Position numbers and translations under genes: made by a program. Positions 21,086 to 30,807 of a stretch of 64,000 bases of DNA are shown piece by piece. The notes under the pieces are model-generated. The model did not search any database and was not told where the DNA came from. It saw nothing but the letters and a program-made list of their open reading frames with translations. The first letter of the stretch is position 1. The number at the start of each line of letters is the position of its first letter. This stretch comes from Cyanophyceae cyanobacterium (GTDB lineage: Bacteria; Cyanobacteriota; Cyanobacteriia; Cyanobacteriales; JBHJGN01), in assembly GCA_050331735.1 (NCBI GenBank), contig JBHJGN010000037.1, positions 52,858 through 116,857 on the forward strand. Reading direction: 5' to 3'.

Positions 21086-21243
21086 AACACAGGATGAAGG
21101 AATAAATTGATTGCTTCTTCTTTGCCCTTTGCCCGCAGCGTAAGCTGCCTTGCTGCTTGCTCAGGAATCTCTCATCAATCCCTCAGAGGAACTTCACGGT
21201 GCAATTGCATGTTGAGAAGTATCGAACGATAGTCGATTGCTCG

Positions 21244-21771
21244 ATGAAATTAGGAACCATTGTTAAATTGGCTGGCGGGACGGCAGCAGTAGTGATCGCG
21301 ACCCTAGCCGCCTTGGTTGTCCAGGCAGGCGGTTGGGAAAATTTTAAGCTGAAGCATTTTTATCTGACAAGTGTAGTTCACGATCAAGAGCAGGAACTAG
21401 ACGACCTCCGCAAACAGGTCAACCTCGCAGACGCCAGCCGCATCGACCTTGCGGAGCTTCTCAACGGAGGACCGCCGAAAGACGGCATTCCTAGTATCGA
21501 CAATCCCAAATTTGATACGGCTCAGACAACGCCTTTTCGTCAAGAGGATCTGGTGATTGGGATTGTTGTTAATGGAGAGGCGAAAATCTATCCGCTGGGA
21601 ATTCTCAACTGGCACGAACTGGTTAACGACCGAATTGGGGGGGTTAATCTGAGCGTCTCCTACTGTCCGCTGTGCGACACCATTGTTGCCTTTGAACGCA
21701 ACGAGACAACCTTCGGAGTATCGGGCAAGCTGTATCAAAGCTGTTTGGTCATGTACGACCGAGCTGACGAT
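21244..21771 (+). pseudogene. DUF3179 domain protein, 5' part, interrupted by IS
   Basis: GGPPKDGIPSID, WHELVND, SYCPLC, FGVSGKLYQSCLVMYDR; homology stops at the IS left end. Confidence 0.85.
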
Positions 21772-23431
21772 ACAGGAACCGTCGCAGTTTGATAGCCCAC
21801 GAGCTTTAGCCGTGGGTGGAAAAACGAGTTATCCCCCTTAGGGCAGTCAGACTTTTCCTTGTGCTTCGACATATTCTTTGATTGTTTCTAAGCTAACCTG
21901 ACCAGCGGTAGAAACAAAGTAGCTGCGAGTCCACATCGAAGGCAGCTTCATCAACTAAGGAAACTCTTTTCTTAAATATCTAGCCGATGCACCTTTAACT
22001 TTGTGCATGATAGCTGGAATGCCTAAGTGAAAAGGCGCGTTGATGAATAGGTGTACGTGGTCAGGCTCTATAGCTAGAGAGATTAATCGACAATCTAGAG
22101 CTGACAAGGCTTGATGAATTAGTTCGCTAAGCCTTTGCTTGATCTTCCCCTTCAAGACTTTTCTACGTCTTCTCGGTATCCAAATGAAATGATAGTTGAT
22201 ATCTGAAACGGTTGTATGAGTTCGTCTATATCTTTCCGTTATCTCTACAAATTATGTCTATCTAACGGTATTATAGACAGATGAAAACGTTTAAATTTAA
22301 GCTATATCACCAGAAGTGGAATCAACATCTACATCGCGCTATCAATGCAGCCAGCAGTGTATATAATCACTGCATTGCTTTGCATAAGCGCTATTATCGG
22401 ATGTTCAAAAAGCATCTAAACAAAAATAAGCTGATGAAGCATATAGCTAAACTAAAACGGAGCAATGCTTATTGGCTCCTGGTTAACGCCCAGGCTGTTC
22501 AAGATATCGTTCAGCGGATAGACCGAGCCTACGAGCTATTTTTCAAACACCACAAGAAGGGGGTTAGACCACCGAACTTTAGAAAGAAAATTAAGTATAA
22601 AGCTATTACGCTTAAGCAGAATGGCTATAAGTTTTTATCAGGCAATCAGTGCGGAATGCACCAAGCTTGCGACCCAAAATCGATTCCGGGTCGTTCCCGG
22701 TTGAGGATTGGAAAGCGAGTATTTAAATTCTGGCTCAGTCGAGAAATCCAAGGAAAGATTAAAACTGTCACTATCAAACGTAATGCTCTAGACGAGTTAT
22801 TTGTGTTTGTTGTGACTGATTTTGTAGATCGCCAAGTCCCAGTCATGACGGGTAACAGCGCAGGTTTTGACTTCGGCTGCAAAACATTTCTAACTTGCTC
22901 GGACGGCACGGATATCAAATCGCCATTGTTCCTTAAGCAATCTTTAAAGCAGCTAGCGTTAGCCAGCCGCAATCATTCCACCAAGAAACGAGGTTCCAGG
23001 AGGCGAGAGAAAGCAAGGGTAAATCTGGTGCGAGTCCATGAGAAAGTTGTAAACCGCCGCTCTGACTGGTTCTGGAAGCTGGCACATAGGCTAACGGACA
23101 AGTTTGATTACTTGTTCTTTGAAACTCTCAGTCTCAAGGGAATGCAGCGTTTGTGGGGTCGGAAGATCAGTGACTTGGCTTTTGCTGAGTTCCTGAAAAT
23201 CCTGGACTTTGTCGGCGAAAAGAAAGGCAAGGTGGTTAGCTATATTGATCGTTGGTTCCCTAGCTCTAAAACCTGTTCTGAGTGCAATTTTGTGGTAGAT
23301 AAGCTGGACTTGAACGAACGTTATTGGGTCTGTCCAAGCTGTTCGGCTAAGCATGGACGCGATGCTAACGCTAGTCGAGTAATTCTAAGAGTTGGGGCTA
23401 CAACTCTAAGGTTAGGAGATGTTAGTCTGCC
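21772..23431 (+). mobile_element. IS200/IS605-family element (divergent tnpA and tnpB), right end missing
   Basis: Left end with subterminal hairpin cccacg-agctttagc-cgtggg. tnpA on minus, tnpB on plus. No RE hairpin/TCAA before DUF3179 sequence resumes. Confidence 0.88.
21847..22242 (-). pseudogene. tnpA: IS200-type Y1 transposase TnpA, inactivated
   Basis: YHFIWIPRRR, PDHVHLF (HUH), KGAS, WTRSYFVST, IKEYV. In-frame TAG at 21955-21957 separates HUH from the catalytic Tyr; apparent start codon reads ATA. Confidence 0.88.
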
Positions 23432-23474
23432 AAACAGACGAGACGATTGTGTTTCGAGTGCGTCATCAAGATAG
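22281..23474 (+). CDS. tnpB: TnpB RNA-guided endonuclease
   Basis: RuvC I GFDFG, RuvC II FFETL, zinc finger CSEC/CPSC, RuvC III RDANAS. The last ~14 codons read into the flanking DUF3179 sequence. Confidence 0.92.
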   Translation: MKTFKFKLYHQKWNQHLHRAINAASSVYNHCIALHKRYYRMFKKHLNKNKLMKHIAKLKRSNAYWLLVNAQAVQDIVQRIDRAYELFFKHHKKGVRPPNFRKKIKYKAITLKQNGYKFLSGNQCGMHQACDPKSIPGRSRLRIGKRVFKFWLSREIQGKIKTVTIKRNALDELFVFVVTDFVDRQVPVMTGNSAGFDFGCKTFLTCSDGTDIKSPLFLKQSLKQLALASRNHSTKKRGSRRREKARVNLVRVHEKVVNRRSDWFWKLAHRLTDKFDYLFFETLSLKGMQRLWGRKISDLAFAEFLKILDFVGEKKGKVVSYIDRWFPSSKTCSECNFVVDKLDLNERYWVCPSCSAKHGRDANASRVILRVGATTLRLGDVSLPNRRDDCVSSASSR

Positions 23475-23739
23475 GCTCACGCTGCATCCGAAAGCCATTG
23501 TGAGCCATGTCTGGGAAGCAGACAATCAAATGCCCCACAACCGCTTCTCCGGTGACAGCCGGCAATTTCCCCACGAGGAACTTAAACAAGTAGAAGAGAA
23601 GGTGGTAGTCTTCAACGGACGCACCATCAAAGCGAGATGGGATCGCCAATTAGCAACGGTTGTTGTGACCGAAATGGATGGCACTGTGATTCCAAGTTCT
23701 ACGGCCTTTGCGTTTGTCTATCCAGCGTACTTTGAATAA
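23432..23739 (+). pseudogene. DUF3179 domain protein, 3' part
   Basis: TDETIVFRVRHQDR..LHPKAIV...IPSSTAFAFVYPAYFE*, on the same strand as the 5' part. Confidence 0.7.
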
Positions 23740-27389: not shown

Positions 27390-29057
27390 ATGCTTCGTGA
27401 TCGCACAGCCATGATAGAACAGCTCGTTCAAGTCACAGAATCTCCAGTCGAGAATATCCTTCAGTCTACTGTTGAGCTCATCGCAGAAACTTTCAATGCG
27501 GGATGCTGCTTAAGCTGGCAGCCTCAACGAGATAGCAAAGCGCGGGTGTGTTATTCGTCCAAGTCTGTTACCCAAGAATTACGGCAGCTTTGTCAAAAAC
27601 TCTGCCATTCCTACCGCTCTACTCTCGCAGAAGGAACCCTCAGAGCTTTAGCTCGTGGAGATTCACTGCCGCTCGTGGAAGTGGCTATGCGCGAGGCTGA
27701 TATAGACTCAGTTCTGCTCATACCGCTGTTAACCGAAAATACCTATAGCGGAGAAATTAGCCTGTATCGTCAGGCGATGCAGTGGACGGAAAATGAACGA
27801 CAGATTATTCGGGCGATCGCGTCTCAGTGCGTCAGAACCATTGAGCAGGCAACGCCCCCCTCTCCAAAAGCTCAGTCTCTACACGAGTTAAGCCAGCAGA
27901 TTTTTCGGCTGCTTAATTCTCCCCGTCAGCCAGAGCAGATTCTCTTAGAGATATTAGCCAAAATTGGACAAGGCTTTCAGATCGAGCGGGTTGTCCTATT
28001 GCAGCTCGTCGGAGAACAGCTCGAGGTTCATCAAGAGTGGCGGCTACACGACCACGTTCCTCAAATTCGGATAGGGTCATTTAACTTGGCCCCCCGCGAG
28101 CTGGTGTTCAACGGACGCGAGCGACAGTATGTTGCTACGGCGAGCGAAGCAGAAGCGATTTGGGGGGATCAATGTGTGCTGACGGTCCCGGTCTTCGTTC
28201 GCGGTCAGTTTTTTGGAGGAATAGCGCTGCAAACTCAGACAGCACGAACGCTGACGCAACCGGAACTTGAGCTGCTGGAGTGTACAGCGGAGCAGGTATC
28301 GGTCGCTCTAGAACGTGTTCAAACGAGCGATCGTATCGAACAGTTGGTGGCAGAAAAACAGCGTTCTGATGAAGCGAACCAAGCTAAAAGTCAGTTTTTA
28401 TCGGTGATGAACCACGAGCTACGGACACCTCTAACCAGCATTATTGGCTTTTCCAATCTGTTGATGGAGGAAATCTATGGTTCGTTAAACCAGAAACAGA
28501 TGCAGTACGTCAGCGCCATTCTAGAGTCTGGCGAGTATTTGCTAGAACTGATCAACGATCTCCTCGATATCTCTAAAATTGAAGCGGAAAAAGAAGAGCT
28601 GTTTTTAGAAAAAGTCCCGGTAGAAGAAATTTGTTTATCTTCGCTGTCGCTAGTCGCAGAAAAAGCTAGGCAAGAAGGGCTCAGGATAGAAGTTAACATT
28701 GCTCCCAACGTTGGTGTTTGTTTGGCTGACCAGCGTCGCCTAAAGCAGATTTTAGTCAATCTGTTGTCTAACTCTGTTAAGTTCACAAGTGCTGGAGGTT
28801 CAGTCACTCTGCAAGTACAGCAAGATACTGAAATCCGCTTTTCCATCATTGATACTGGAATTGGTATTAGCCCAGAAGATCAGCAGAAGCTGTTTCAACC
28901 CTTTGTGCAAATCAATAATCGTTTCAGTCGCAAACAGAAGGGAACAGGCTTAGGCTTAGCTCTCTCCCGTAAGCTCGCTCAACTCCACGGCGGGGATATT
29001 ACCCTTGTCTCAGAGGTTGGCAAGGGAAGCTGCTTCACGCTGCATTTACCGCTCTAA
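27390..29057 (+). CDS. GAF-GAF sensor histidine kinase
   Basis: Two GAF-like regions; H box NHELRTPL, N box NLLSNSVKF, DTGIGI, GTGLGL. Confidence 0.92.
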   Translation: MLRDRTAMIEQLVQVTESPVENILQSTVELIAETFNAGCCLSWQPQRDSKARVCYSSKSVTQELRQLCQKLCHSYRSTLAEGTLRALARGDSLPLVEVAMREADIDSVLLIPLLTENTYSGEISLYRQAMQWTENERQIIRAIASQCVRTIEQATPPSPKAQSLHELSQQIFRLLNSPRQPEQILLEILAKIGQGFQIERVVLLQLVGEQLEVHQEWRLHDHVPQIRIGSFNLAPRELVFNGRERQYVATASEAEAIWGDQCVLTVPVFVRGQFFGGIALQTQTARTLTQPELELLECTAEQVSVALERVQTSDRIEQLVAEKQRSDEANQAKSQFLSVMNHELRTPLTSIIGFSNLLMEEIYGSLNQKQMQYVSAILESGEYLLELINDLLDISKIEAEKEELFLEKVPVEEICLSSLSLVAEKARQEGLRIEVNIAPNVGVCLADQRRLKQILVNLLSNSVKFTSAGGSVTLQVQQDTEIRFSIIDTGIGISPEDQQKLFQPFVQINNRFSRKQKGTGLGLALSRKLAQLHGGDITLVSEVGKGSCFTLHLPL

Positions 29058-29091
29058 ACACGCTGAGGTTTAGTCGGGAAAGCTCGATCAG

Positions 29092-29507
29092 TTGACGCAC
29101 TCCCACCGATAAATCGAGTGGAATTCGGCGATCCTGGCGCAGATTGCTGCGGTCCGGCAGTCTGACATCTACTCTCACCCTAGACAACGCCCTGCCTAGC
29201 TGCATTACTTCAGGCAACCAGGATGGTTTTCCTTCTTTAGATCGTTCAGAAGCTCAAAACCTGGATTTTACCCCTAGCGAATTGATTGACCCATTCAAAC
29301 TGAAACGATGACATTCTCACAGTGCGTTCAAAGTTTTACCCAGACGACTTCTAGCCAGAACCCGCTACTTTGATTAAATCGGAGATTTTAGGAGTAAACT
29401 AGCATGAAGTAGCTTAAAACTACAGCTTTCCACGGCAGCTAAAGCTGCTAGCTCGTTTTCCCCCCAAGGCTGAAGCTCGTGGGCTATCAAACTGCGACAG
29501 TTCTTGT
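29092..29507 (-). mobile_element. Non-autonomous IS200/IS605 derivative (LE, non-coding core, RE)
   Basis: Minus strand begins acaagaactgtcgcagtttgatagcccacgagcttcagcc, near-identical to the LE at 21772. It ends gaattccactcgatttatcggtgggagtgcgtcaa (RE hairpin plus TCAA). No transposase ORF. Confidence 0.85.
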
Positions 29508-29817
29508 ATATTTTTCATGCCTGAAGCAGAGCTTAAGTGTGCCAAGAACGACAGGAAAGTAGGTAACGTCAGTTTGGGATCCCAATAGCGGCGGTTCCTC
29601 AAACCGACCATTTCTGTAGTCCGTGAAGACGGCCTTGGCTTGTGTAGCTGCAAATTCATTCGCCATGCGCTGCTCGGCTAGTATTTTTGTGCTCCTTGGT
29701 TTGCTGTTGACCCCTCTAAAGAAAGATGAAGGACAGTTTTCCGATCGCTACCTTGAGGAAAAACTATCCAAAACAGATCCTCAATCTCAATTCAGCAATA
29801 CGACAAGGAGTAACAGA

Positions 29818-30807
29818 ATGACAAAGGTTGCAATCAACGGCTTAGGAAGAATTGGCAGAGCTGCCTTTAAAATTATTCTTGACTCCCCCAAGCTTGAGCT
29901 AGTGGCCGTTAACGATTTAGTGCCGCCTGAAAATCTGGCTTACCTATTAAAATTCGATACCGTTTACGGACGCTATCACAAATCGGTAGACTACGACGAC
30001 AATAGCCTGAGCGTAGGTGGCAAAGAGTACAAAGTTTTTGGAGAAAAAGACCCTTCTAAACTTCCTTGGAAAGACTTAGACATTGATGTTGTCTTTGAAT
30101 GTACCGGAGTGTTTGATAAACGTGACGGGTTAGAAAAACATTTGCAGGCTGGGGCTAAGCAGGTTATTCTGTCTGCTCCGGCGAAAAGTGATGATATTGG
30201 TATGATTGTCTACGGAGTTAATCAAGAGCACTCCGATCCGGTTGTTTCCTGTGCGAGCTGTACCACGAACTGCATCTCTCCAGTCGTAGAAATTATCGGT
30301 CGTCGCGTGGGCATTAAAAAGGCAATTATGACGACGATTCACGCCTATACGGCTAGCCAAAGTATTGTCGATGGACCGAGTAAAAAGCTTCGTCGCGGAC
30401 GTGCCGGAGCGGCCAATCTCGTGCCGACTTCGACCGGAGCGGCGATCGCCACGACCAAAGTGCTCCCTCAGTATCAAAATCGGTTTGATGGGGTGGCTGT
30501 GCGATCGCCCGTTGCCGTTGGCTCAATTGCAGATATCACCTTTGTCACCGAGAAATCTGTTTCCCCAGACGAAATTAATCAAATTTTTCGCGAAGAAGCG
30601 CAGAGCGAAAAATATACGGGAGTGGTCGGCGTTTCGGATGAGCAGATCGTCTCGTCTGATATTATTCAAGACCCCCGCGCCTCAATTGTCGATTTAACCA
30701 TGACTCAAGTGGTTGACGGCGATTTGGTCAAAGTGATGAGCTGGTACGACAACGAGTGGGGCTACGCTAACCAAATGATTAGATATGCTCTTAACGGTCA
30801 TTCGTAG
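29818..30807 (+). CDS. gap: Type I glyceraldehyde-3-phosphate dehydrogenase
   Basis: INGLGRIGR, FECTG, SCASCTTNC, PTSTGAA, WYDNEWGY. RBS AAGGAG before ATG 29818. Confidence 0.95.
   Translation: MTKVAINGLGRIGRAAFKIILDSPKLELVAVNDLVPPENLAYLLKFDTVYGRYHKSVDYDDNSLSVGGKEYKVFGEKDPSKLPWKDLDIDVVFECTGVFDKRDGLEKHLQAGAKQVILSAPAKSDDIGMIVYGVNQEHSDPVVSCASCTTNCISPVVEIIGRRVGIKKAIMTTIHAYTASQSIVDGPSKKLRRGRAGAANLVPTSTGAAIATTKVLPQYQNRFDGVAVRSPVAVGSIADITFVTEKSVSPDEINQIFREEAQSEKYTGVVGVSDEQIVSSDIIQDPRASIVDLTMTQVVDGDLVKVMSWYDNEWGYANQMIRYALNGHS

Follow-up and report, generated by a model that had tools for sequence, protein, structure and literature searches.

A protein-free IS200/IS605 mini-element of a cyanobacterium that probably carries a stand-alone TnpB omegaRNA with an additional conserved 5′ domain

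In the stretch of cyanobacterial DNA analysed here (64,000 nucleotides, referred to as the window), the minus strand between a GAF histidine-kinase gene (27390–29057) and a glyceraldehyde-3-phosphate dehydrogenase (gap) gene (29623–30807) holds a protein-free mini-element of the IS200/IS605 type, which occupies 414 bp at 29092–29505. The comparative data make it likely that this is a non-autonomous, PATE-like IS200/IS605 element without a gene, and that its RNA is a stand-alone TnpB omegaRNA. The order of its parts would be a left end (LE), the remnant of a tnpB promoter, an RNA gene of approximately 290 nt and a right end.

Boundaries and copies of the mini-element

The genome carries three full-length copies of the mini-element, located in the window (100% identity), on contig C43 (96%) and on contig C11 (82%). 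Their surroundings are unrelated, and no repeat indicating a target duplication is seen in the flanks. All three copies start directly 3′ of the tetranucleotide ATAC and terminate with GTGCGTCAA, the end of the window copy being at 29092. The original prediction had described a canonical right end at this position and a span of 29092–29507; the hairpin followed by GTGCGTCAA at 29092 agrees with it, while the other border probably has to be moved. Since ATAC is found immediately 5′ of all three mini-elements and also of the IS at 21774, the mini-element proper probably starts at 29505 instead of 29507, and ATAC (29506–29509, minus strand) would, by analogy with IS608, be the insertion target and the predicted TAM of TnpB. 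Seven of the eight LE copies in the genome follow ATAC, and TTAC precedes related elements in other genomes. When the copy of a relative was compared with 39 genomes of its genus in search of an empty site, its left and right flanks were recovered only on separate contigs and no empty site was found.

The LE with its subterminal hairpin (29431–29505, minus strand) showed 88–92% identity to IS left ends over 52–77 nt in blastn searches, and it is common to the IS at 21774 and to four further LE copies in the genome. The likeness to the left end of this IS, which the original prediction had placed at 21772, was thus borne out, with 88% identity over 59–62 nt. Comparison within the family assigned the adjacent segment (29383–29430, minus strand) to a second LE hairpin and a degenerate remnant of the −10 box of the family promoter. 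The right end, composed of a hairpin and TCAA, is homologous to that of a sister IS on contig C15. Both ends, which have subterminal hairpins and no terminal inverted repeats, are common to the mini-element and the tnpA/tnpB-carrying ISs of the same genome. Positions 29510–29622 separate the LE of the window copy from the gap gene, the LE being approximately 115 nt upstream of its annotated start.

No coding potential was detected in the mini-element. None of the four small ORFs over it gave a Pfam match at E ≤ 1, the best tblastn match to TnpB had an E-value of 0.038, and a TnpB profile run over six-frame translations reached 0.58 at best. The possibility that the element is a decayed gene was pursued with the C-termini of seven TnpB proteins (tblastn) and with the TnpB profile on six-frame translations of 27 elements, and it was rejected, as only matches at chance level were obtained. 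The absence of tnpA or tnpB coding similarity from the core, noticed in the original prediction, therefore holds. The local copies have diverged from each other by 4–18%, so they are not recent.

The same sequence of approximately 22 nt was found about 10 nt from the ends of contigs C4, C21, C29, C43, C53, C58, C62, C73 and C75 of this genome; presumably it is an unresolved repeat that breaks the assembly.

A structured RNA family with a TnpB-type core and an extra 5′ domain

Approximately 300 nt of the element constitute an RNA family. When 400 other genomes of the same cyanobacterial order were searched with the element, 17 gave a match; the matches covered element positions from about 140 to 416 at 68–80% identity, and the 17 genomes span eight GTDB families besides that of the window genome (nine in all). 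Three more of the 400 genomes matched the LE only, and a phylum-wide sample of 400 other genomes yielded a single match, in a genome that belongs to the same order. The family is present in at least three named records (Symploca sp., Spirulina subsalsa and a Prochloraceae MAG); a scan of a genome collection with an unspecific 17-nt motif returned three family members in 80 loci among the matches listed. In the genomes of the order, the matches occupy intergenic gaps. Within one genus, 6 of 39 genomes carry it, a patchy distribution of the kind that mobile elements show, and together with the three local copies bearing IS ends this distribution supports a repeated element with a history of mobility, as had been proposed. 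Some members carry two LE-like units in tandem, each 3′ of (T)TTAC, approximately 100–200 nt upstream of the RNA (L045 and L049 in genome G223), which suggests that left ends were exchanged and that insertions were nested or serial.

A covariance model of the family (R1), run on five genomes, gave a bimodal distribution of scores. Fifteen copies scored 182–317 bits, and none of them was overlapped by an ORF on the same strand; the three local copies scored 270–287 bits. The weaker matches fell between 25 and 70 bits, and seven of these overlap the 3′ end of an ORF of 361–431 codons. The Rfam scan suggested along with the original prediction returned nothing at the gathering score in this region, the best matches by E-value (0.85–1.9) being unrelated snoRNA models.

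The covariation proposed as a check of the structure proved to be strong. In an independent MAFFT alignment of 18 members, 37 of the 64 consensus pairs showed compensatory double changes. In the alignment of 30 members, 95.6% of the pair cells were standard pairs compared with 32–46% in slid controls, and changes on both sides were seen in 42 of 66 pairs (9–15 in the slid controls); none of 500 shuffles reached the observed values of pairing or covariation. The larger alignment was fitted to the model, which inflates its pairing values, and the independent alignment points in the same direction. Beyond the hairpins at the ends, 11 further helices covary across approximately 300 nt, and the right-end hairpin does so too. 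Several of the helices read from the single sequence in the original prediction recur here, as covariation supports the hairpin with the GTAA loop, the one before agatgtcagactgcc (the agatgtcagac motif) and that of the right end. The pairings ctag/ctag, ccagg/cctgg and cttct/agaag lack such support, and the two stems that they make up in the original prediction are wrong: they were paired in 74.2% of the cells against a shuffle mean of 73.2%, their covariation was reached by 103 of 500 shuffles, and they clash with strongly covarying helices. The window copy taken alone did not fold more stably than its shuffles (z = 0.17).

The last approximately 108 nt of the element (omegaRNA core and right end, 29092–29199, minus strand) are homologous to the omegaRNA at the 3′ ends of tnpB-linked elements, which the family model matches at 50–70 bits. 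The core consists of a hairpin (29199–29180), three nested helices, the right-end hairpin (29123–29101) and the TCAA end at 29092, and covariation was observed in all of its helices. An alignment of the last approximately 125 nt includes seven tnpB-linked elements and two elements of the own genome. As the ORFs of the seven tnpB-linked elements are 59–79% identical to the TnpB encoded in the window, the stand-alone RNA and the gene-linked omegaRNAs of one TnpB family are relatives. The original prediction had based this relationship on a parallel between the element and the 3′ end of tnpB at 23390–23431. This parallel is real; it is weak when taken alone (22 of 29 columns, score 30 compared with 22 ± 4 and a maximum of 37 in shuffles) and carries conviction once the 3′ ends of the sister IS (contig C15) and of a tnpB fragment (contig C87) are added, which match the family covariance model at 67 and 50 bits, respectively.

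The core also includes a 4-bp pseudoknot between positions −6 to −3 (29097–29094) and a hairpin loop approximately 100 nt upstream (29191–29188, minus strand). It was found by scanning for partners of the variable base at −6, and this one pair covaries (AU in 16, GC in six, UG in five, UA in one and another combination in one sequence, that is, paired in 28 of 29), flanked by invariant G-C, G-U and C-G pairs. By eye, the pseudoknot holds in the tnpB-linked sequences as well. It takes up all four bases of the 4-nt loop, a sterically tight arrangement unless the hairpin opens at its G-U-rich top. A long-range 3-bp helix between the 5′ domain and the 3′ end, suggested by RNAalifold, was dropped in favour of the pseudoknot because its 3′ bases show better covariation with the hairpin loop.

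By position and by analogy with ISDra2 (PMC10097598, in its account of the omegaRNA), the 16 nt of flanking DNA 3′ of the right end (29076–29091, minus strand) are predicted to be the guide, which would directly adjoin the scaffold with its pseudoknot; the flank after TCAA begins with the bases that the original prediction had given as the start of the guide. For each of the three local copies, the only perfect match of the 16-nt guide in the genome is its own site, and the sites with one mismatch found in the genome lack ATAC and TTAC. The core and right end are 98–99% identical among the three local copies, while other parts are down to 68–81%; in the most divergent pair, 106 of 108 positions are identical in the core and 127 of 187 (68%) in the 5′ domain. 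Such identity of the core amid a diverged remainder argues for continuing selection or homogenisation.

Upstream of the core lies a structured and conserved domain of approximately 180 nt (29200–29382, minus strand), defined by projecting the covariation of the 30 members onto the window copy. Its helices are 29373–29367/29334–29328, 29359–29352/29346–29339, 29296–29291/29226–29222 and the GTAA hairpin 29213–29200. A separate model of this 5′ domain (R2) found it in 15 of 15 stand-alone copies in five genomes and in none of seven tnpB-linked loci, so that, within these five genomes and seven loci, the domain appears to be specific to the stand-alone lineage. Its translations showed no similarity to TnpB at the protein level. 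Being noncoding and yet conserved, it is probably under selection for something at the RNA level, the likeliest options being stabilisation, processing or loading of an RNA that has become separate from the tnpB mRNA.

Since the domain covaries, is unseen by the model at tnpB-linked loci and has its first two helices in common with a second family, a further reading may be considered, although we regard it as tentative and rather doubtful. The 5′ domain could be a functional module that evolved in, and was exchanged among, RNA-only IS200/IS605 elements, giving their RNA an own start, stability, processing or competitive loading onto TnpB; such elements would be long-lived "guide-only" hyperparasites of TnpA and TnpB across the order. 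The second family, found in genome G340, also comprises protein-free IS200/IS605-like mini-elements (for example L065 on G340:C110 and L068 on G340:C211, with about 25 more places). It has the promoter region and the first two RNA helices in common with the mini-elements, with compensatory changes, and differs in the 3′ part and the right end. A TnpB of the window's family was not found beside it in the five loci checked.

The neighbouring IS, its TnpB and the promoter

The nearest cognate element is a 3′-truncated IS605-type element (21774–23432, plus strand) which, as judged by comparison with its sister copy, contains the LE, a tnpA pseudogene, tnpB and only the first part of the omegaRNA. 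The tnpA gene (Y1 transposase, 21859–22212, minus strand; PF01797, 131 bits) has one in-frame TAG as its single internal stop, while tnpB is an open frame of 397 codons (22281–23474, plus strand) with matches to the Pfam families OrfB_IS605 and Cas12f1-like_TNB. Approximately the first 383 codons of this frame are native, and its tail is read-through into DUF3179 DNA. The IS interrupts a DUF3179 gene, which is split into 21157–21773 and 23433–23739, and about 60 profile positions of DUF3179 are missing at the right junction. The similarity to its 83% identical sister on contig C15 breaks off after 23432, midway through the omegaRNA region. From this break, and from the resumption of DUF3179 with approximately 60 positions missing, we concluded that a deletion took the 3′ part of the RNA together with the right end and the host DNA next to it. 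At the 3′ end of this IS, no omegaRNA was found by nhmmer or by the covariance model. All of this is in accordance with the original claim that the TnpB 6 kb away has no right end of its own.

The sister IS on C15 has kept its right end, and its tnpB is frameshifted and its tnpA contains a TGA. In both ISs, tnpA is divergently oriented. As both cognate tnpA copies (21859–22212, minus strand, in the window and C15:47718–48071) carry exactly one in-frame stop, the present mobility of the mini-element is doubtful. The genome has five other Y1 tnpA matches without an internal stop, three of which span the full profile.

The window tnpB is the only copy of its family in the genome with a frame that is neither shifted nor truncated; the other relatives are fragments. 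Its product matches ISDra2 TnpB over residues 2–374 (E = 4e-40), and in one alignment with its top match, the designed nuclease 9yyg, the motifs GFDFG, FFETL and GRDAN align with GVDLG, AVEDL and DRDEN. These motifs presumably represent the Asp-Glu-Asp triad of the RuvC domain. Judged by the sequence, the catalytic motifs of the window TnpB are intact. Across the order, a TnpB of this family was found in 12 of the 17 genomes with the mini-element and in 78 of the 383 others; these are rough counts in related genomes, with the best two or four candidates scored per genome.

A −10 box is located at a fixed distance upstream of the RNA in the family: it is exactly TATAAT in 15 of 29 members and matches at least five of the six bases in 24 of 29. 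The three local copies are the poorest in this respect (at most four of six), and a scan for sigma-70 promoters flagged nothing inside the window element. In genomes G185 and G340, the LE and the promoter region of the mini-elements are homologous to those ahead of tnpB in ISs of the same genome, from which the layout of LE, tnpB promoter, RNA and right end follows. A more distant relative of the LE, which has the second LE hairpin in common with the mini-elements, was seen in the window genome at C45:165–237 (L008). It is followed by a TGATATAAT box and by a tnpB-like gene of another family (PF07282 match), and a right-end-like sequence ending in GTCAA lies approximately 18 nt upstream of it.

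Proposed working, alternatives and comparison with known systems

According to the published model of IS200/IS605 persistence, at least in the outline given in PMC10055086, TnpA excises the element and the flanks are rejoined, then TnpB loaded with the RNA of the element cuts this empty site, and recombination restores the lost copy. For the mini-element, we propose that a Y1 TnpA acting in trans excises it and inserts it 3′ of (A/T)TAC. Its transcript would run past the right end, so that the next approximately 16 nt serve as the guide, and the 3′ approximately 108 nt, comprising the hairpin, the pseudoknot, the three nested helices and the right-end hairpin, would be the core bound by TnpB. 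The RNA would be loaded in trans by a TnpB of the same IS family, which would cut the empty site formed by rejoining, where ATAC precedes the guide match, whereupon recombination restores the element. A gene-less element with such an RNA would keep this protection provided that TnpB comes in trans. The uniqueness of each guide match, the co-occurrence with the TnpB family and the near identity of the local cores agree with this scheme; the broken cognate tnpA genes, the weak promoters and the divergence of the copies speak against current activity in this genome. On sequence grounds, loading by the local TnpB, as put forward in the original prediction, is plausible. Because the 3′ portion of the omegaRNA belonging to the TnpB with the intact frame (22281–23474) is lost, the only guides for this TnpB would come from the RNA ends of the two broken ISs and from the three mini-elements.

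It is possible, though in our estimate considerably less probable than not, that the family is or once was functional elsewhere and the three local copies are inert relics, immobile, poorly transcribed and unused by TnpB. The in-frame stops in both cognate tnpA genes, the frameshifted tnpB of the sister IS and the 4–18% differences between the copies would fit such relics, as would the local −10 box (four of six bases, against at least five of six in 24 of 29 family members) and the lack of a flagged promoter. This explanation is at odds with the near identity (98–99%) of the core and right end while other parts have drifted to 68–81%, and with the 270–287 bits that the local copies still reach on the family model. 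Moreover, the genome has a tnpB of the cognate family with an open frame and catalytic motifs, and the five stop-free Y1 tnpA matches, three of them over the full profile, are candidates for recognising these ends.

Two other explanations would separate the conserved pairing from a guide function. The pairs may be structures of single-stranded DNA formed for transposition, or be merely tolerated, in which case the element is a plain MITE or PATE without a guide RNA. IS200/IS605 transposition proceeds on a single DNA strand, and a hairpin is required at either end (PMC10055086, in its description of the mechanism), and the strand-specific wobble pairs are indecisive because G-T wobbles are allowed in single-stranded DNA too. 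However, this model needs subterminal hairpins only, as far as PMC10055086 sets it out, and here 11 more helices covary over approximately 300 nt, the 3′ part is a homologue of tnpB-linked omegaRNAs with a pseudoknot of the omegaRNA type, and the −10 box of the family is kept at a fixed upstream distance, all of which makes this explanation very improbable. We attach hardly any weight to a takeover of the RNA by the host, where it would act as an antisense regulator of the convergent histidine-kinase 3′ end or as the guide of a TnpB-derived repressor. The RNA would indeed be directed at the stop codon of the kinase (29057), which lies 35 nt beyond the right end, and TnpB-derived RNA-guided repressors exist (PMC10705468); yet the three copies stand in unrelated contexts, each guide perfectly matches only its own site, the distribution within the genus (6 of 39 genomes) resembles that of a mobile element, and the catalytic motifs of TnpB are kept. 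We retain, as the likeliest interpretation, a gene-less element with a stand-alone TnpB omegaRNA.

Although stand-alone omegaRNAs are known, little work has been done on them, and PMC10691335 calls their biological role unknown. The present family offers a comparative case, in which gene-linked RNAs and a conserved lineage of RNA-only elements with an added domain would both serve a single TnpB family, and in this genome a TnpB deprived of its own guide stands beside three guide-only elements. If the 5′ domain is functional, it would show how guide RNAs can become independent genes, a step from a transposon RNA towards tracrRNA/crRNA-like systems, and it could offer a layout taken from nature for the expression of TnpB guides in trans; otherwise, the element is one more PATE.

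Within the genome, the closest comparison is with the IS at 21774–23432 and its sister on C15; these have the LE and the ATAC target in common with the mini-element, and their omegaRNA core and right end are homologous to its own. They carry tnpA and tnpB, both of which are absent from the mini-element, and they have nothing that corresponds to its 5′ RNA domain. Mobilised stand-alone omegaRNAs that have neither effector nor transposase were identified and shown to act in trans (Altae-Tran et al. 2021, as summarised in Altae-Tran et al. 2023, PMC10691335). As described in that summary, they resemble our element in the lack of an effector or transposase gene, in the presence of effector-bearing loci in the same genomes and in an RNA meant for a compatible nuclease in trans. 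The present element differs from this description in that its RNA is of the TnpB type, comes from a cyanobacterial order and is known from sequence alone, and in that its family has mostly kept a tnpB promoter and has a conserved, structured domain of approximately 180 nt at the 5′ side which the model did not see at tnpB-linked loci. PATEs, which "often encode omegaRNAs" requiring TnpB in trans (Meers et al. 2023, PMC10055086), are likewise protein-free, have IS200/IS605-type ends and are mobilised in trans by TnpA. In contrast to the PATEs portrayed in that text, about three-quarters of the 414 bp are RNA gene here, and the lineage extends across nine GTDB families and is not a recent deletion derivative of a local IS.

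In the omegaRNA of ISDra2, as presented in the main account of Nakagawa et al. (2023, PMC10097598), the functional scaffold is 116 nt long and has a pseudoknot between −5 to −3 and −103 to −105, while the dispensable 5′ region (−231 to −117), which has an overlap with the tnpB ORF, is removed by trimming. The core of the mini-element RNA is similarly formed by the last approximately 110–116 nt before the guide, has a pseudoknot to a loop approximately 100 nt upstream and is followed by a (predicted) 16-nt flank guide. Relative to that account, the difference lies in the 5′ region, which is noncoding here and nevertheless conserved and covarying. The term "extended" used in the original prediction applies in a relative sense only, since the scaffold of approximately 300 nt compares with 231 nt in ISDra2. 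As judged by Rfam, of which no family matched the mini-element RNA, no sequence similarity between it and the ISDra2 RNA was seen. The open-access main texts on TnpB, omegaRNAs, PATEs and cyanobacteria that were covered contained no description of the cyanobacterial family or of the 5′ domain. Thus, as far as these sources go, the kind of element is already published, as stand-alone omegaRNAs and omegaRNA-bearing PATEs, and what is new is a cyanobacterial family with an extra conserved 5′ RNA domain.
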